A DNA stretch of 64,000 bases from Candidatus Buchananbacteria bacterium. GTDB taxonomy: Bacteria; Patescibacteriota; Patescibacteriia; 2-01-FULL-39-33. The notes beneath the pieces were generated by a model. It had not been told where the DNA came from. It did no database searches and saw only the letters and a list, made by a program, of their open reading frames with translations. Both the position numbers and the translations under genes were made by a program. Position 1 is the stretch's first letter. Each line of letters starts with the position of its first letter. The stretch covers positions 8,199-72,198 of the forward strand of contig JAUSEE010000001.1 of NCBI GenBank assembly GCA_030650095.1, written 5' to 3'. Below, piece after piece: positions 1 to 43,345 of this stretch.

Positions 1-816
1 ATCATTCTCATACGTCACGACAGAAAAAACTCTAGAAGCTGATTTAGAAACAAAAGGTCCAGTCCCGCGGTAATCACCAAGTTCTAATTTTTCGACTTTT
101 TTTATTTCTATTGATTTATTTAGATTCTTAGCCGCTTCTTCTATAAAATCTTGAGCTATTTTGGCAGACATACCAAACCCCATCTCATCGAACACTAAAA
201 TTTTATCACCATCTTTTAAATATTTTTTACAACTTTCTTCAATTTCTTCTTTGGTTTTTAAAACGAAGGGGTTTTCCTGAATCTTAGTATTAATAAATTT
301 TTTTAAATCATCAGTTTCATTAGGCCATACACCAAATTTTTCCATTGATTCTATTTCTGGTTCAGGATGACCTGTTTCGAGAGCATATTCATGATATATC
401 CTTTTTCTCCATTCCCAGTCTTTTTGTAACGCCCTTACTCCTTTAGGATTTACAGTAAGAAATAAGGGTTGTTTTTTATCAGGGAAAGCTGTTTTGTATG
501 CTTCTTTAAAAATTATTCCATAGGGAATTGATGAAGATTGGGTTAAAAATATCACGTCGAAATTTTCTCGATCTAAGTATTTAGTTAGATGTTTAAATGT
601 CCCAATATCTCTTTCTCCTTCCAACCACTTTTTTTCAAATTCATTTATTTTTCTAAAATGTAAAACATTTTCTTCAATTGACGGTTCTTCATTGTTATTA
701 GAATCAGGATTTTCTCCACTCGCCAACCCATCAAATCCCGCCTCATTTTCCGTTGGATACTCAAGTCCTTCGTTAAGATTTTCTTGATTGATTTTTGGTT
801 CTTCAAATCTTGGCAT
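1..816 (-). CDS. Hypothetical protein, C-terminal part only (N-terminus at 816, ORF runs off the left edge). It was missed by the ORF track because it is truncated.
   Basis: Open minus-strand frame from ATG (complement of 814-816) to the window start. Translation begins MPRFEEPKINQENLNEGLEYPTENEAGF...KKQPLFLTVNPKG...ILVFDEMGFG; no family recognised. Confidence 0.45.
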   Translation of the reverse strand, partial: MPRFEEPKINQENLNEGLEYPTENEAGFDGLASGENPDSNNNEEPSIEENVLHFRKINEFEKKWLEGERDIGTFKHLTKYLDRENFDVIFLTQSSSIPYGIIFKEAYKTAFPDKKQPLFLTVNPKGVRALQKDWEWRKRIYHEYALETGHPEPEIESMEKFGVWPNETDDLKKFINTKIQENPFVLKTKEEIEESCKKYLKDGDKILVFDEMGFGMSAKIAQDFIEEAAKNLNKSIEIKKVEKLELGDYRGTGPFVSKSASRVFSVVTYEND

Positions 817-820
817 ATTT

Positions 821-1033
821 TTATTTTATTAAATCATCGACAGAAACACCTAACCCTTTAGCAATCTTTGCCATAGTTTCAATCGTTGGATTCGGAGTTG
901 CCCCCGATTCTATTTTAATAATCACATTATAAGCAATATCAGCCCGCTTCGAAAGACCGTCTTGCGAAATACCCAATTTATCTCGGTATTTTTTAATATT
1001 TCTGGCTATTGTTGGCAATTCTTTTGGTTTCAT
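821..1033 (-). CDS. XRE-family helix-turn-helix transcriptional regulator (70 aa)
   Basis: ORF track. Short HTH protein with a typical XRE/Cro-like helix (IARNIKKYRDKLGISQDGLSKRADIAYNVIIKIESG). Divergently oriented to the recombinase. Confidence 0.7.
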   Translation of the reverse strand: MKPKELPTIARNIKKYRDKLGISQDGLSKRADIAYNVIIKIESGATPNPTIETMAKIAKGLGVSVDDLIK

Positions 1034-1132
1034 AGTATAATTATACTAGTATAGTAGTTAAATAAGTTTTACTACTATAACTTTATCAAAATTCGAGTAT
1101 TTTATCAATAATTTTTTAAAGCCCGCTTTTGG

Positions 1133-1367
1133 CCAAAATGAAGTTCGAGCCGATATTTTTTCCAGGTTCTTTGGCGGTTTTTAATCCGAAAGGGCGGGCG
1201 GATGGAGGGGTTGGGGGAGGAAATCCGCCCGATCATCAATTTTTGGGGGTGAAATCGGTTCGAATTTTTTTGTAAACACACCGCCAATCGGTATTTGCCC
1301 AGTTTTCGGGCAGAAGTTTCAGAATTCGCCAACCAGTTTTGGCCTGAAATTCAAATTTTTTGGCTTC
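1133..1367. repeat. Left inverted-repeat copies. 1281-1367 is the exact reverse complement of 2790-2876 (87 bp). 1133-1161 is the reverse complement of 2762-2790 (29 bp). A 119-bp GC-rich spacer separates them, and their order is non-colinear with the right copy.
   Basis: Direct base-by-base comparison of both strands. Confidence 0.85.
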
Positions 1368-1427
1368 TAATTCTTAAAGAATTGCCAAAAGCGGACTTTA
1401 AAAAATTATTAGTTTAATCTCAAATAT

Positions 1428-2939
1428 ATGAAGTATTTTATCTACGCTCGCAAGTCCACTGATAGCGAAGAACGGCAGATATTAAGCATTGAATCCCAGA
1501 TTGCTGAGTTATATGAATTTGCCGCCAAAGAAAAACTGGAAATCGCCGCTTCGCTGTGCGAAGCGAAAACCGCCAAAGAACCTGGCCGAACGGTGTTCGG
1601 GGAAATGCTGGATCGGATTTGCGCCGGTGAAGCCGGAGGAATTTTGGCTTGGCACCCGGACCGGCTCGCAAGAAATTCAATTGACGGAGGCAAAATCATT
1701 TATCTTTTGGACACAGGCCAGATCAAGGACTTAAAATTTCCCACCTTTTGGTTTGACAGCACTCCACAAGGGAAATTCATGATGAACATTGCCTTTGGCC
1801 AAAGCAAGTACTATATCGACAATCTTAGTGAGAATATACGGCGAGGTCATCGGGCTAAGCTAAGGAAAGGTATTTGGCCAATCTTTGCCCCGTTGGGCTA
1901 CCTGAATAACCAACAGACCAAAGGCATTGATCTTGACCGAGAAAGGGCGCCTTTGGTCAAGAAATGCTTTGAGTTGTACGCTACGGGCGAATATACCCTT
2001 AAAGCCCTAAGGGATGTAATCAGTCAAGCGGGGCTAAGAAGCTACCGAGGCAATGTTCTGGCGGTGGCCTGTGTCCAAAGAATGCTCAAAAACTCAATTT
2101 ACTACGGCCTTTTCAAGTTTAACGATGAAATGCACGAGGGAACGCATGAGCCGATTATTTCCAAGAAACTTTTTGATGAAGCTCAACAAGTGATGAATAA
2201 CCGAGGCAAGAAGAAAAGAAAACGAAAACACGAGTTTACTTTTTCTGGACTGATGAAATGCGGGAAGTGCGATTGCCTCATTACTGCTGAAAAACAAAAA
2301 GGCCACAATTATTATCGCTGTACCAAGAAAAAGCAAACCTGCGACGAAAAATATCTGCGGGAAGAATCACTTGTTGAACAGATGAAAGAAATTATTCAAA
2401 AAGTTTCCTTGCCAGACGATTGGGCAAAAAACATGCTCGCCGAGATTGAGCTGGAAAGAGAGCAGGCCAGAAAAGATGGCGAGGTTTTTGGGCAAAAGTT
2501 GGAAGTGAGAAAAACAGAAATCGAGCAAACTATGGAACGCCTGCTTGATTTGTTCATTGAAGGCAAAAATATTGAGCCAGAGGAGTATCACGCTAAAAAA
2601 CAAAAACTTCTCATTGAGAAGTGTGAGGTTAGTCAGCAAATCAAGGATTTTGCCCAAAAAGGAAATAATTGGCTCGAACCCATGAAAGAAATGATTCTAG
2701 CCAGCAGCCAAGCCAAAATTCTATTGTCGCGGGGCGACAATTCGCAAATCCGAGCATTTCTAAAAAATATCGGCTCGAACTTCATTTTGGAAGCCAAAAA
2801 ATTTGAATTTCAGGCCAAAACTGGTTGGCGAATTCTGAAACTTCTGCCCGAAAACTGGGCAAATACCGATTGGCGGAGAGTGAGGGATTTGAACCCTCGA
2901 TACCTTTCGGTATACACGCTTTCCAAGCGTGCGCACTAG
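1428..2939 (+). CDS. Large serine recombinase (resolvase/invertase catalytic domain, recombinase domain and C-terminal zinc ribbon). The true stop is uncertain because the track ORF reads through the tRNA-Ser on the opposite strand.
   Basis: N-terminal YARKSTDSEERQILSIESQ catalytic-serine motif; CGKCDCLITAEKQKGHNYYRC zinc-ribbon motif; 503 aa. The last 23 codons are the antisense of the tRNA. Confidence 0.85.
   Translation: MKYFIYARKSTDSEERQILSIESQIAELYEFAAKEKLEIAASLCEAKTAKEPGRTVFGEMLDRICAGEAGGILAWHPDRLARNSIDGGKIIYLLDTGQIKDLKFPTFWFDSTPQGKFMMNIAFGQSKYYIDNLSENIRRGHRAKLRKGIWPIFAPLGYLNNQQTKGIDLDRERAPLVKKCFELYATGEYTLKALRDVISQAGLRSYRGNVLAVACVQRMLKNSIYYGLFKFNDEMHEGTHEPIISKKLFDEAQQVMNNRGKKKRKRKHEFTFSGLMKCGKCDCLITAEKQKGHNYYRCTKKKQTCDEKYLREESLVEQMKEIIQKVSLPDDWAKNMLAEIELEREQARKDGEVFGQKLEVRKTEIEQTMERLLDLFIEGKNIEPEEYHAKKQKLLIEKCEVSQQIKDFAQKGNNWLEPMKEMILASSQAKILLSRGDNSQIRAFLKNIGSNFILEAKKFEFQAKTGWRILKLLPENWANTDWRRVRDLNPRYLSVYTLSKRAH
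2762..2876. repeat. Right copy of the inverted repeat (partners at 1281-1367 and 1133-1161). It covers the recombinase 3' end and 6 nt of the tRNA-Ser 3' terminus.
   Basis: Exact reverse-complement identity, checked by eye. Confidence 0.85.
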
Positions 2940-2959
2940 ACCAACTATGCGAACTCTCC
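2871..2959 (-). tRNA. tRNA-Ser (anticodon GGA), 89 nt, CCA encoded
   Basis: Minus-strand cloverleaf: acceptor GGAGAGT/ACTCTCC, anticodon stem-loop ACGC-TTGGAAA-GCGT, long variable arm, T-arm GAGGG-TTCAAAT-CCCTC, terminal GCCA. Confidence 0.8.
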
Positions 2960-3000: not shown

Positions 3001-3177
3001 TTAATATTCTTTCTTGTCTTGTCCCTTAAACGGGCCATTATGCTTGATTAATGGCTTCGAAATGTTCTTACTGCCGCACTTGGGACAAGTACGGGGAATA
3101 TTTTCGCCTTGATCACCTGCCGGTCCACTGGTGGTGCAATCAGTGCATTGCCAACTGGGGTTGTATTGGTATACCAT
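3001..3177 (-). CDS. Small zinc-ribbon protein (58 aa, CxxC...CxxC). Not in the ORF track because it is under 60 aa.
   Basis: Translation MVYQYNPSWQCTDCTTSGPAGDQGENIPRTCPKCGSKNISKPLIKHNGPFKGQDKKEY. Paralog of the next gene. Confidence 0.55.
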   Translation of the reverse strand: MVYQYNPSWQCTDCTTSGPAGDQGENIPRTCPKCGSKNISKPLIKHNGPFKGQDKKEY

Positions 3178-3223
3178 CTTTCGTACCTCGCTTGAGTTGG
3201 TGGATTGATAAACATTTTGGATT

Positions 3224-3391
3224 TTAGTACCTTTTCAAAGAATCTTCGTCAAAGGGACCGCCTTTTTTAAGCGGCGTACAAAGTATATTCTTACTGCCAC
3301 AATTGGGACACTTTGAAGGAGTTATTGTTTTGATAGATCCAGAATGATTACAATCCGTACAATACCAAAAAGGTTCTATTTTTTGTACCAT
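3224..3391 (-). CDS. Small zinc-ribbon protein (55 aa), paralog of 3001-3177
   Basis: Translation MVQKIEPFWYCTDCNHSGSIKTITPSKCPNCGSKNILCTPLKKGGPFDEDSLKRY. A strong Shine-Dalgarno sequence (AGGAGGTG) lies 8 nt upstream. Confidence 0.6.
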   Translation of the reverse strand: MVQKIEPFWYCTDCNHSGSIKTITPSKCPNCGSKNILCTPLKKGGPFDEDSLKRY

Positions 3392-3562
3392 GTCTTACAC
3401 CTCCTGTTTCTTGTTTGGGTTTCTTAAGACTAAACAAATTTTACCTAAAATAATCGATTTTGTCCACAAAAATAACTAATTTAGCCATTTATCACAACAA
3501 ATAATGAACCCGACCCCGCTCTAAAGAGCGGGGTATCCGGGCAGCAACATTATAAAAAACCA

Positions 3563-3589
3563 AAAAGCGGCCTCATCAGCCGCTTTTTT
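3563..3589 (-). terminator. Rho-independent terminator downstream of the thioredoxin-like gene
   Basis: aaaagcggc-ctcatcag-ccgcttttttt hairpin with a T-run in the minus-strand sense. Confidence 0.6.
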
Positions 3590-3598
3590 TATGAGAAA

Positions 3599-41729: not shown

Positions 41730-41760
41730 ATTATACTTGTAGATTTATACCAATAACTAG

Positions 41761-41832
41761 TGTCCTCAAGAGGAATTGAACCTCTATTTCAGGCTCCGCA
41801 AGCCGGCGCTCTATCCTTTGAGCTATGAGGAC
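41761..41832 (-). tRNA. tRNA, anticodon reads GCG (Arg?). CCA is not encoded.
   Basis: Acceptor GTCCTCA/TGAGGAC, D-arm GCTC-AAAGGATA-GAGC, anticodon arm CCGGC-TTGCGGA-GCCTG with one C/U mismatch, T-arm AGAGG-TTCAATT-CCTCT. Confidence 0.6.
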
Positions 41833-41857
41833 GAATAAAAGAATAATCTTTTAAAAA

Positions 41858-42361
41858 TTAAATCCTCAATAGACGGCGCAATCTTTCAGATAATGGTTCA
41901 GCTTCCCTTTCCAAATCTTCTTTTAAGAATTGCAACAGGAATTCCCTTATCCCAATAACATCCAAGCCGTCTAAATCAACAACCAATCTACCCCTAAGCG
42001 GATTTTTGAAATCCACGTATAAATTCTTAATGCCATGATCCTGATAAATGATAAAGAAATTATCAATATGTTTATAGAAAAAGAAGTTCTTGCCATGCTT
42101 TATGCCATCATTGGTGATAGTACAATCCACCAACTCCGGTTGCTTGAATTCATACATTATGACTACCAAATAAAACAAGACCAGGAAGACGGCAAAAAGA
42201 TAATTAATGGTGTATATCGCCCAACCAACCATTAGAGCAATAATTAAAAACGATATTAAATACCAAGCTACGCTCTTTTGATATTTAACATAATCATGGC
42301 ATTTCCAAGAAAAAACCACCTCGCTTAATTGTTGATTTTCTGTTTTGTTTGGCATGGACAT
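41858..42361 (-). CDS. Hypothetical membrane protein (two transmembrane helices plus a cytoplasmic domain)
   Basis: ORF track; hydrophobic hairpin; no family recognised. Confidence 0.45.
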   Translation of the reverse strand: MSMPNKTENQQLSEVVFSWKCHDYVKYQKSVAWYLISFLIIALMVGWAIYTINYLFAVFLVLFYLVVIMYEFKQPELVDCTITNDGIKHGKNFFFYKHIDNFFIIYQDHGIKNLYVDFKNPLRGRLVVDLDGLDVIGIREFLLQFLKEDLEREAEPLSERLRRLLRI

Positions 42362-42400
42362 ATTTTTAATAAAAATTATTTTATAATCTTTTTAAAATAC

Positions 42401-42631
42401 CTATAAACCGCACAAATGCATGCTAACAGCGGCTTTTATGGCTTTAAACCTATCTTCTGATAATTCCGGAAAAACATCTCTGATTTTTTGTTCAAATTTA
42501 TTCCAACTGCCATCATCATCTTTGTTTAAATCTTCTTCGACAAATTGTTCTATCCTCTCATTAAAGAGAGCTAATTCTTCAGCCGCGGTCATTTTTTCTT
42601 CATCAACTTCACTTTTATTTTCAAAATTCAT
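42401..42631 (-). CDS. Small acidic hypothetical protein (76 aa)
   Basis: ORF track; Glu/Asp-rich. Confidence 0.35.
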   Translation of the reverse strand: MNFENKSEVDEEKMTAAEELALFNERIEQFVEEDLNKDDDGSWNKFEQKIRDVFPELSEDRFKAIKAAVSMHLCGL

Positions 42632-42716
42632 GGTTAGAAAAATTATTAATTACTTTATCTCAAAAATTGGGATAAAAATTTATATGCGGAGAGGGTGGCC
42701 TGGCCTGCCGGTAGGC

Positions 42717-42868
42717 AGGGATTTACGGAATAATTTGCCACCAAAAAGTGGCAAATTATTCTGTCCTGGGTGGCCGCCAATCCTGCGCCAGCTCGGATTG
42801 GCTTAAAGTTTCGTTTCGACGCTCGGCTTCCGCCTTGCTTCTCACTCAACTTGCCACCCGTTCAAATC
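42717..42868. repeat. 152-bp structured element R, copy A. It is preceded by a displaced 14-nt tRNA-Ser(TGA) 3'-end fragment plus 25 nt of that tRNA's downstream flank (42658-42696).
   Basis: Near-identical to 43045-43196 (3 substitutions). Contains a 14-bp perfect stem (gaataatttgccac/gtggcaaattattc) and an 8-bp stem (gccaatcc/ggattggc). Confidence 0.8.
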
Positions 42869-42922
42869 CCGCTATCTCATATCTAAATTTTTATCCTAAA
42901 AATTGGGATAAAAATTTATATG

Positions 42923-43009
42923 CGGAGAGGGTGGGATTCGAACCCACGGTCCCCGTGAAGGGACTTCAGTTTTCAAGACTGACACATTCGACCACTCTGT
43001 CACCTCTCC
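42923..43009 (-). tRNA. tRNA-Ser (anticodon TGA)
   Basis: GGAGAGG acceptor, anticodon loop CTTGAAA, long variable arm, T-arm GTGGG-TTCGAAT-CCCAC. Confidence 0.8.
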
Positions 43010-43044
43010 ATCTAAAATTGTATTATCACTTACTGCAGAGAAGG

Positions 43045-43196
43045 AGGGATTTACGGCATAATTTGCCACCAAAAAGTGGCAAATTATTCTGTCCTGGGTG
43101 GCCGCCAATCCTGCGCCAGCTCGGATTGGCTTAAAGTTTCGTTTCGGCGCTCGGCTTCCGCCTTGCTTCTCACTCAACTTGCCACCTGTTCAAATC
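43045..43196. repeat. Element R, copy B. It is preceded by an 18-nt fragment (tgcagagaaggagggatt) matching the 3' end of tRNA-Ser(GCT) with 1 mismatch.
   Basis: See copy A. Confidence 0.8.
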
Positions 43197-43255
43197 TTAG
43201 CTTCTTTCATAAGCTGATTTGAGAATGAGGATAAACCACATTATCAAATCATCTG

Positions 43256-43345
43256 CGGAGAAGGAGGGATTCGAACCCTCGATACGCTTAAAAAACGTAT
43301 AACGGATTAGCAATCCGCCGCTTTCAGCCACTCAGCCACCTCTCC
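43256..43345 (-). tRNA. tRNA-Ser (anticodon GCT)
   Basis: Acceptor GGAGAGG, anticodon arm CGGAT-TGCTAAT-CCG, long variable arm, T-arm GAGGG-TTCGAAT-CCCTC. Confidence 0.8.

Follow-up and report, generated by a model that had tools for sequence, protein, structure and literature searches.

A tRNA-Ser(GGA)-inserted element of a large serine recombinase that probably carries a second, inverted attP

The 64-kb stretch of DNA analysed here (the window) holds most of an integrative element of ~3.2 kb, which is inserted into the 3' end of a tRNA-Ser(GGA) gene and has its recombinase gene at the right end. From left to right the element consists of the left end x'-e, which lies outside the window, a cargo gene and an XRE-family regulator gene on the minus strand, the repeats a-b-c, the contiguous blocks x|d, palindrome y with repeat a', the gene of a large serine recombinase (LSR) on the plus strand, within which e', c' and b' are located, and finally arm d' and the minus-strand tRNA gene (Table 1). 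Solely the XRE regulator and the LSR are conserved as genes of the element. The cargo differs among related elements: the cargo ORF of the window has only the first 38 residues in common with that of L001, and neither the cargo ORF of L001 nor that of L029 matches a Pfam or PHROG family. Domain and PHROG searches detected no replication initiator, relaxase, packaging or transfer gene in the element. Contig L126, which is 100% identical to positions 1-1172, goes 217 nt beyond the left edge of the window, through the rest of the cargo ORF and e' into the first 30 nt of x.

Table 1. Features of the element within the window (plus-strand coordinates)
Feature	Position	Strand	Remarks
Cargo ORF	1-816	-	Starts at 816 and runs off the left edge; 322 aa in the identical contig L126; cargo arc
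XRE-family helix-turn-helix regulator	821-1033	-	70 aa; HTH_3 in the near-identical L001 protein; divergent from the recombinase
Two palindromes	1034-1079		TAGTATAATTATACTA at 1034-1049, the second with 9-bp arms at about 1050-1079; promoter-like hexamers of either strand overlap with them
Repeat a	1107-1133		Inverted copy of a' (1384-1410); arms co-vary between loci; carries a -35/-10-like pair
Repeat b	1133-1161		Inverted copy of b' (2762-2790, recombinase codons 445-454)
Repeat c	1162-1181		Inverted copy of c' (1566-1585, recombinase codons 46-53)
Block x	1182-1280		Probable P' arm of the second, inverted attP; pairs with x', the element's left end
Arm d	1281-1367		Probable P arm of the second, inverted attP; core CCGC at 1281-1284
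Palindrome y, AATTCTTAAAGAATT	1368-1383		Hairpin in relatives, stem co-varies; between d and the a' promoter
Repeat a'	1384-1410	+	Promoter-like TTGCCA-16-AATTAT just 5' of the recombinase start codon (consensus match)
Large serine recombinase ORF	1428-2939	+	503 aa; conserved protein ends near 2876, later codons are antisense tRNA
Segment e'	1524-1547	+	Codons about 33-40; inverted copy e adjoins x' at the left end, outside the window
Segment c'	1566-1585	+	Partner of c
Perfect inverted repeats within the coding sequence	1639-2721	+	Members of a conserved nested set
Segment b'	2762-2790	+	Partner of b
Arm d'	2790-2876	+	P arm of attR; last 29 conserved recombinase codons; core GCGG at 2873-2876
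tRNA-Ser(GGA)	2871-2959	-	Target, B' half of attB; T-arm motif TTTGAAC at 2888-2894, 11 nt from the core

The recombinase matches three Pfam families above their cut-offs, PF00239 (Resolvase, residues 4-149), PF07508 (Recombinase, 172-259) and PF13408 (Zn_ribbon_recom, 272-318), as well as PHROG 95 'integrase' (E = 1.7e-71). By these matches the protein has the three domains expected of an LSR, namely the resolvase catalytic domain, the recombinase domain (DBD1) and the zinc ribbon (DBD2). It belongs to a clade with 7842 database matches and is less than 30% identical to its nearest homologues from cultured phages and plasmids. A look-up returned no entry for the recombinase of the window itself and an entry for its XRE regulator. 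Recombinase and tRNA are present as described in the initial annotation, except that the ORF does not end with the repeat but passes it and continues antisense through the tRNA to 2939. In about 12 of 120 homologues the C-terminal tail is encoded by x' rather than by the antisense strand of the tRNA gene. No recognisable directionality factor was found by domain search or in the neighbourhood of related loci, where the XRE regulator is the sole conserved partner, with a homologue upstream of the recombinase and on the opposite strand in 38 loci. Between the two genes, 1034-1079 is a putative operator and divergent promoter region, judged by consensus matches; the plus strand carries a promoter-like TTGGCA-18-TATAAT at 1012-1041 (11 of 12 matches to the consensus), and the -35/-10-like pair in repeat a reads opposite to that in a'.

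Inverted repeats are concentrated around the recombinase gene. The region 1080-2980 contains seven perfect ones of at least 13 nt, compared with a mean of 0.43 and a median of 0 in 1.9-kb windows moved in 300-nt steps across the whole 64 kb. Both pairs reported initially, the exact 87-nt pair d/d' and the exact 29-nt pair b/b', are present, and the former is part of an extended match of 95 nt with 97% identity (1276-1370 / 2787-2881). Two further pairs are c/c' (20 nt, exact) and a/a' (27 nt, one mismatch). The GC-rich block of 119 bp that had been noticed between the left-hand pieces (1162-1280) also exists, but since 1162-1181 is itself repeated as c, the truly unique part is 1182-1280, that is, block x. 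The proposed search for further copies of this block led to x', the left end of the element, about 190 nt to the left of the window, as is confirmed by the independent contig L126. Block x has a TTCGAA motif at 1259-1264, 16 nt from the core, and a conserved hairpin (1196-1203 / 1223-1230) with a G-rich loop; ARAGORN and Rfam found no tRNA-like or Rfam RNA in the GC-rich block, and with Rfam covariance models no family was detected in 1100-1430, the tRNA alone scoring above threshold. Within the gene, the pairs 1639-1653/2707-2721, 1706-1720/2065-2079 and 2485-~2497/~2648-2660 belong to a nested arrangement (P about 0.003 for seven random chords).

Several simple origins of these repeats can be dismissed. 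The left-hand pieces are non-colinear, as had been remarked, and their order a-b-c-x-d is neither colinear with nor a cyclic permutation of the gene order, which excludes a degenerate colinear inverted copy of the gene. Chance is ruled out by the local enrichment and by recurrence in independent assemblies. In a transposon or insertion sequence with terminal inverted repeats the termini would match each other, but x' and d' are unrelated and each pairs with the internal x|d instead. Likewise, an insertion into a pseudo-site of a second recombinase gene, suggested by e' and c flanking the x copies, was rejected, as the junctions lie at the distal x ends and not at the core.

The tRNA gene itself is intact (57.3 bits), and the element supplies just its CCA plus the core, the CCA being provided by TGG at 2871-2873 in d'. 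The unoccupied tRNA-Ser genes of the window, which end ...|GCGGAGAG without an encoded CCA, represent empty sites in the same genome. Thus the element shows the insertion at the 3' end and the restoration of the tRNA by element sequence that define tRNA-gene islands. Comparison of the homologous loci of relatives, as had been proposed for defining the att core, placed it at GCGG, tRNA positions 71-74: a core of GCGG, CGG or TGGCGG is found at both junctions of the related loci, and attL and attR thus share a short direct core there, while the left-end module of the window's own element is known via L126. The direct repeat in these elements is only 4-6 nt long. The initial annotation had expected a short direct core of this kind and saw a long inverted repeat in its place; the repeat and the layout are indeed atypical for LSRs, but the GCGG core is present as well. 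Across the related loci the targets comprise ten tRNA species (Ser 42, Gln 8, Leu 6, Asn 5, Arg 4, and Asp, Trp, Ala, Glu and Lys 1 each), and the tRNA abuts the recombinase gene in 70 of 91 loci.

With the core in place the long repeats can be assigned to attachment sites. Arm d' is the P arm of attR, in line with the earlier proposal that the repeat is linked to recombinase action at tRNA-Ser, with x' as its counterpart in attL, the P' arm. The internal site agrees with attR in the P arm up to TGGCGG in at least 35 elements, and with attL in the P' arm from GCGG/CGG onward, again in at least 35. Furthermore, in at least 35 elements and with several target types, the distance of TTCGAAC from the core is 16 nt in P' and 11 nt in the tRNA. 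In large serine integrases the motif for DBD2 sits 5 bp further from the centre in attP than it does in attB (PMC11722253), and the two distances match this spacing rule. Blocks x and d adjoin (x|d, 1182-1367), and together they are exactly reverse-complementary to the d'|x' junction that is expected on circularisation, which indicates a complete second attP in inverted orientation inside the element. On this sequence logic, the element is probably an LSR integrative element with two attP copies, and the 87-nt repeat would be the P arm of the duplicated site. A full-text literature search returned no description of an LSR element with an inverted internal attP, and the doubled-site layout is apparently undescribed for LSRs.

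The arrangement recurs widely. Of 69 informative related loci, 62 contain a d/d' repeat (median 90 nt, range 68-158), while an x/x' repeat occurs in 37 loci (median 109 nt). The related recombinases are only ~52% identical, yet the layout is kept across the ten tRNA targets, in hosts that include Patescibacteria, Gammaproteobacteria, Kiritimatiellia, Dehalococcoidales and Nitrospira. Six loci also came up in viral contigs. Within a locus the d arms are 99% identical, as against 57% between loci, and the corresponding values for the x arms are 99% and 60%, indicating concerted evolution. The synonymous sites of the recombinase gene are constrained at e', b' and d', with e' as the top window. 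The locus had also been considered a scar of successive integration and inversion, or else an assembly artefact, to which the non-colinear order of the left-hand pieces and the fact that contigs often end at the repeats would correspond. A dead scar or an artefact is nevertheless highly improbable: dozens of separate assemblies, produced by different assemblers, show the pieces in an unchanged order, more than 60 independently assembled contigs contain the arrangement, and the arms change in concert despite the divergence of the family, with synonymous sites under constraint.

The initial annotation favoured a self-inverting, inverton-like cassette, in which frequent flipping of 1368-2789 by the recombinase, with the 87-nt repeats on either side, would act as an on/off or read-out switch. 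The repeats do enclose the gene with its promoter region, and flipping of the segment restores the 3' end of the gene as had been predicted, so that the full-length protein with the tail ...TDWRCVYKKIRTDFTPKN is kept. In addition, the internal attP and attR are mutually inverted, in some rearranged forms (L073, L079, L115) the tRNA is upstream of the gene, and tandem arrays occur among the related loci, which suggests that occupied sites remain usable. By contrast, the orientation is nearly invariant: XRE and recombinase are divergent in 38 loci and co-directional, with XRE upstream, in 1, and the recombinase reads into the tRNA in 70 of 91 loci (A-form) whereas the tRNA is upstream in only 4 of 82 (B-form), although such counts from assemblies report the majority state and would miss flipping at low frequency. 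With one orientation so strongly dominant, the second attP copy is not a balanced flip-flop. Moreover, the enzyme is a large serine integrase with sites of the attP/attB type and not a small invertase with short identical sites, and L079 is better read as integration via the other attP copy, since its cargo remains on the opposite strand. Frequent inversion as a switch is therefore unlikely.

Rearranged forms are found all the same. L012 is an intact isomer with flipped cargo, L021 and L115-L119, the latter encoding protein P0036, are deletion derivatives of flipped isomers, and L079 and L073 appear to have integrated through the other attP copy. The existence of such isomers (L012, L021, L079, L073, L115) means that inversion or alternative integration has occurred, and the doubled attP seems to let the element rearrange itself. 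The contig of L096, which begins with d'x' and has x d in its interior, fits a circular or tandem permutation.

For the element with two attP copies the following course can be proposed. The LSR would integrate the circular form by recombination of attP with attB, with the crossover in GCGG. In the circle the two inverted attP copies would part an LSR arc from a cargo arc, and integration could proceed through either copy. Recombination between the copies would flip one arc relative to the other; our guess is that homologous recombination is responsible, but the LSR could also mediate this step. Canonical LSRs recombine attP with attB only, or attL with attR when a directionality factor is present, so that an LSR which flips arcs or builds the tandem arrays would depart from canonical behaviour. 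Gene conversion at the DNA level may keep the two copies identical. The internal copy is located between the divergent genes, upstream of the recombinase start by 60-250 nt, and is most plausibly also a candidate LSR binding site for self-regulation. Not explained by this model are the short repeats a, b, c and e, the nested repeats within the gene, and the length of the d (about 90 nt) and x (about 110 nt) arms, which far exceed the requirement of an LSR site and have conserved inner boundaries.

An alternative reading is control at the RNA level, with a, b, c and d belonging to a long leader or small RNA and limiting recombinase expression as antisense modules, by pairing with the mRNA at the 5' UTR, at codons 46-53 and at the 3' end, similar to fold-back or antisense control of transposases. 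In its favour, the strong promoter-like site at 1012-1041 faces into a-b-c-x-d, the region 1100-1440 folds far better than shuffled sequence (z -5.2 and -7.5), b:b' and c:c' form one nested set with the intragenic repeats, and the synonymous constraint falls on e', b' and d'. However, mismatches compatible with G.U pairing are not in excess on either strand (61 G.T, 57 A.C and 71 other in the intragenic repeats), and those between the arms likewise have no consistent G.U bias, about half being of the transversion type. In L044 both e arms carry the same 21-nt insertion, which points to copying of DNA rather than selection for pairing. No Rfam family is found here, and d:d', a:a', e:e' and x:x' cross the nest of b:b' and c:c', for which reason, together with the missing G.U excess, a single RNA fold with all pairs was rejected. 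We consider RNA-level control improbable.

A single-stranded DNA stage is similarly doubtful. In this case the repeats would serve folding during uptake, transfer or replication, x|d would pair with both ends, and correction of mismatches in the stems would preserve the identity of the arms. The nested intragenic repeats, a mismatch spectrum free of wobble bias, arms far longer than a protein site requires and the occurrence across phyla without encoded transfer genes are all consistent with such a stage. Against it, no gene for a replication initiator, relaxase or packaging was detected and the reading is entirely inferential; in addition, pairing of a, b, c and e would cross the x/d stems, so that the two cannot form simultaneously. 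As a special case the internal inverted attP might be a built-in splint for circularisation of single-stranded DNA, which we regard as a long shot. In one strand of the integrated element x' would pair with x, and d with d'; both stems would stack into a duplex attP of ~200 bp in which the ends of the element abut at the core and the host flanks form flaps. Removal of these flaps and ligation by the host would yield a precise single-stranded circle without recombinase or directionality factor, on the principle of a padlock probe. If this were true, chromosomal DNA entering a cell as a single strand could re-establish the element in a new host, and the single-stranded phase would have left its traces in the nested gene repeats and in the concerted evolution without wobble. 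A milder alternative is that the LSR may recombine attP with attP, attL or attR without a directionality factor, which would result in a flip-flop like that of the 2-micron plasmid.

LSRs are prized for genome engineering because of their simple sites and one-way reaction. The very large clade to which the recombinase of the window belongs is unstudied, and for ten tRNA targets attP and attB can be read straight from the sequence. If the assignment of the two attP copies is right, the textbook layout is broken by a second intact attP kept inside the integrated element, which makes the element a natural test of whether the directionality rules of LSRs are universal. The design shows how a three-gene element without transfer genes can occur across phyla, and for assemblies of uncultivated bacteria it is a cause of contig breaks.

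Among the characterised systems, the integrases of phiC31, Bxb1, A118 and SPbeta (SprA) resemble the LSR of the window in the three-domain protein, the short core shared by attP and attB, the attP DBD2 motif placed 5 bp further out and the gene adjoining the att site. Unlike elements with these integrases, the element of the window targets the extreme 3' end of a tRNA, uses the last 29 codons of its gene as the P arm, appears to keep a second complete attP, inverted and identical to the first, and lacks a recognised directionality factor, with arrays hinting at reuse of occupied sites. With tRNA-gene islands, including tycheposons, it has in common tRNA-specific insertion with restoration of the tRNA, variable cargo and tandem accretion. 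In the tycheposon paper, tyrosine recombinases are given for 910 of 937 elements, which leave a direct partial tRNA repeat, and the terms searched there led to no passage on an internal inverted att copy (bioRxiv 10.1101/2020.12.28.424599).

As in Hin/hix and Gin/gix, inverted repeats with the crossover site enclose a segment in which the serine recombinase gene is located. Hin and Gin are small invertases acting on identical sites of about 26 bp with the help of a Fis-bound enhancer, and both states coexist within a population. The element of the window differs from them in having a large integrase (503 aa, with recombinase and zinc-ribbon domains), dissimilar flanking sites, one of the attP and one of the attR type, 87-nt arms and a nearly fixed orientation, the two orientations not both being common across loci. 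The CTX phage attP, which is formed by folded single-stranded DNA, and the attC sites of integrons are recombined by tyrosine recombinases through exchange of single strands; the likeness concerns solely the splint idea, in which inverted copies on one strand could pair into a double-stranded site. A serine recombinase cleaves both strands and, if it acted directly on a folded single strand, would break the chromosome.

The yeast 2-micron plasmid (FLP/FRT) is a circle with two long inverted repeats, each with a recombinase target, and with the recombinase gene in one of the two arcs. It differs from the element of the window, which has a serine instead of a tyrosine recombinase, is integrated, forms very unequal isomers and may be flipped by an agent other than its own recombinase; replication and partition genes of the 2-micron type were not detected in the element, whose cargo is variable. 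Nevertheless, the sequence logic of x|d and d'|x' suggests the same layout of a circle with two arcs, and both arc orientations are found, as L012 differs from the common form, albeit rarely (L012 intact; L021 and L115 derived).

The recombinase gene beside tRNA-Ser(GGA) is associated with the two mirror pairs reported in the initial annotation, both of which are present as described: d and d' are exact reverse complements over 87 nt (95 nt at 97% identity when extended), and b and b' over 29 nt. Two further pairs had been missed, c:c' (20 nt) and a:a' (27 nt, one mismatch), and because of them the left-hand region can be read as a contiguous mosaic a-b-c-x-d, of which the block x is the sole piece without a partner inside the window. 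Altogether, seven perfect inverted repeats 13 nt or longer fall within 1080-2980, against a mean of 0.43 per 1.9-kb window over the whole 64 kb.

Features of the recombinase locus and its surroundings (window coordinates)
Feature	Position	Strand	Remarks
XRE	821-1033	-	helix-turn-helix regulator
a and a'	1107-1133 and 1384-1410		mirror pair
b and b'	1133-1161 and 2762-2790		mirror pair
c and c'	1162-1181 and 1566-1585		mirror pair
x	1182-1280		GC-rich block
x hairpin	1196-1230		within x
d and d'	1281-1367 and 2790-2876		mirror pair
y	1368-1383		palindrome
LSR (large serine recombinase)	1428-2939	+	503 aa; resolvase, recombinase and zinc-ribbon domains
e'	1524-1547		within LSR
tRNA-Ser(GGA)	2871-2959	-	LSR ORF continues antisense through the tRNA, past the repeat
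Two adjacent small ORFs	3001-3391	-	58 and 55 aa, paralogous
Direct repeat, 26 nt	3062-3087 and 3285-3310		shared by the small ORFs
Strong hairpin	3509-3590		between convergent genes
tRNA-Arg(GCG), -Ser(TGA), -Ser(GCT)	41760-43345		both tRNA-Ser are unoccupied targets

The two small ORFs carry paired CxxC motifs and look like zinc ribbons. The hairpin between the convergent genes (aaaaagcggcc...ggccgcttttttt) gave weak sub-threshold matches in Rfam (OrzO-P, several sRNAs); its most likely role is that of a bidirectional terminator.

Databases hold 7842 relatives of the recombinase. The nearest (70-95% identity) come from very different phyla, and nearly all end in ...NWRRGRDSNPR..., the antisense translation of a tRNA 3' end. 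About 120 loci were gathered from genome and metagenome collections, and 62 of the 69 with enough flanking DNA for scoring carry the d:d' repeat (median 90 nt, range 68-158), always beginning near codon 455 and reaching the tRNA end; the other seven mostly have the repeat at a different distance (L022, L066, L112) or are deletion derivatives (L115). The b, c and a repeats occur at the same gene coordinates in relatives, and the design is kept at 52-56% identity, beside tRNA-Gln, Leu, Asn, Arg, Lys and others. This family-wide recurrence excludes an assembly artefact or a one-off scar. The initial interpretation stands only in part. Asn-targeting relatives (L074, L082, L071, L107) have different short repeats, the 40 nt directly 5' of the start codon being complementary to gene nt 262-281 and 357-376 in nested pairs, so that the principle of placing coding segments of the element upstream in antisense copy is shared, though realized with different segments. 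In the closest relative (95% identical; L029/L030, 7400-13470) the site end has diverged, and where an intact tRNA would be expected there are phage-like genes (Amidase_2, LysM and one for a 938-aa protein), which may belong to a neighbouring prophage at the same site. Cargo of related elements (L112, L114, L111) includes a DNA methylase, a TaqI-like restriction enzyme, DUF4145 and LMWPc, which suggests defence or accessory functions.

In relatives with long upstream flanks, x has an inverted counterpart (x'; 37 loci, median 109 nt) 0.8-5.5 kb further upstream. After x' comes e, which mirrors recombinase codons ~27-40. Since x and d are contiguous, x/d is the exact reverse complement of the junction d'/x' that joining of the element's ends would create and, judged from sequence, amounts to a complete attP copy in inverted orientation. 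For the window element x' and e were predicted just beyond the left edge; an independent contig, L126, 100% identical to window 1-1172, reaches 217 nt further left, where a 322-aa cargo ORF ends and e' (24 nt, 96%) and the first 30 nt of x come next, which marks the left end and gives an element size of ~3.2 kb. The internal site, attR and attL were compared in at least 35 elements: with attR the internal site has in common the P arm as far as TGGCGG, and with attL the P' arm starting at GCGG or CGG. The common core, GCGG, corresponds to tRNA positions 71-74. For all target classes examined, the distance between TTCGAAC and the core is 16 nt in P' and 11 nt in the T-arm of the tRNA, the same 5-bp offset of the DBD2 motif by which attP differs from attB among large serine integrases (PMC11722253). 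This anatomy, as far as sequence can tell, supports membership in the LSR integrase family and the definition of the crossover region. Both unoccupied tRNA-Ser genes of the window end .../GCGGAGAG and encode no CCA, so that the element gives tRNA-Ser(GGA) its CCA. The attP is duplicated in inverted orientation and its P arm is the 87-nt repeat; the elements that carry it make up a conserved LSR family with tRNA targets. The x hairpin, aligned between window and relatives, is conserved, with a GC stem of 8-11 bp closing a G-rich loop (GGAGGGGTTGGGGGAGG); the Leu-targeting relative L079 has a comparable G-rich motif.

The two attP copies evolve in concert. The d arms of one locus have a median identity of 99% (100% in 29 loci), whereas d' is 57% identical between loci and 77% inside the Ser-targeting group; for x the values are 99% within and 60% between loci. 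The sequences of a, b and c differ by subfamily, yet the partners always match. In L044 an identical 21-nt palindromic insertion (CCTGCCTGCCGGCCAGGCAGG, seven codons) is present both in the gene (nt 84-140) and in the distant inverted copy of e (~1.87-1.81 kb upstream of the recombinase start), indicating recent copying between arms with only ~18-nt common flanks. Arm mismatches have no consistent G.U-compatible excess on either strand and about half are of transversion type; we read this pattern as the work of copying or correction at the DNA level, and not of selection on RNA pairing. Gene segments that have a partner show higher synonymous codon identity (e' 0.88, b' 0.93, d' 0.90) than the remainder (0.72), with e' ranking first among all windows along the gene, so that they are constrained beyond their coding role.

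The recombinase gene itself contains 13 recurrent perfect inverted repeats of 8-16 nt (window 1639-2721; gene nt 175-1333 in relatives), and the window region stands clearly apart from the remainder of the 64 kb. Eleven are nested, with b:b' and c:c' prolonging the same nest, and seven random chords would all be non-crossing with a chance of 0.003. The nesting suggests physical folding of a single strand, but the mismatches (G.T 61, A.C 57, other 71) show no excess of G.T over A.C. Possible explanations are a long structured mRNA leader, an ssDNA phase and templated repeat correction. Covariation is limited because most helices have one dominant sequence. That x/d might serve in ssDNA as a splint, holding the two ends of the element against each other at the core so that it circularises without the recombinase, seems improbable.

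Isomers and derivatives of the element exist in nature. In the common form the recombinase reads into the tRNA (70 of 91 loci), and the upstream XRE gene is divergent in 38 loci and co-directional in one, which gives no support to the inverton-like switch of the initial annotation as a frequent event. In L079 and L073 the tRNA lies just upstream on the same strand and overlaps d, which is best explained by integration via the other attP copy; past d', L079 continues with an x'-like arm, cargo on the opposite strand and x at the contig end. L012 is an intact cargo-flipped isomer (flank/x' c' b' a' cargo(+) e' x/d y a' LSR d'/tRNA) in which all short repeats are direct. Deletion derivatives of flipped isomers have junctions at such short repeats: L021 lost the span between two e' copies and with it the gene's first 78 nt, and L115-L119 that between two b' copies, leaving a recombinase truncated after ...GSNFIL and fused to an XRE domain (P0036, the same protein on seven contigs). 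In tandem arrays (L007, L065, L100, L111, L112) the d' of one element abuts the x' of the next; an x'-encoded tail is found in ~12 of 120 homologues, and L096 is consistent with circular or tandem permutation. In L075 the recombinase cassette stands alone between two convergent tRNA-Ser genes (GCT, TGA), with a 158-nt repeat that takes in ~30 nt of each, as would be expected if the internal attP had recombined with a second tRNA and the intervening DNA had been lost.

We infer that the circular form would carry two inverted sites separating two arcs, with the recombinase gene in one, and could integrate through either attP copy. Flipping of an arc would happen, but be rare or short-lived. In the flipped state the short repeats would turn direct and cause deletions. 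Our guess leans towards homologous recombination rather than the LSR as the agent of flipping and array formation; LSR-mediated events, if true, would be non-canonical. The most conservative guess is that the recombinase binds the internal copy, which lies between the divergent promoters of XRE and LSR, and so would regulate its own expression, but this leaves the arm length of ~90-110 nt with conserved boundaries unaccounted for.

Among cultured phages and plasmids no homologue of the recombinase exceeds 30% identity, and in the literature searched no LSR element is described that has an inverted attP in its interior. The element is classed as an LSR integrative element, of which the internal inverted attP is what appears undescribed. 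Tycheposons and other tRNA islands use another enzyme and another layout. The proposed circle would resemble the yeast 2-micron plasmid, with two inverted sites, two arcs and the recombinase in one of them.
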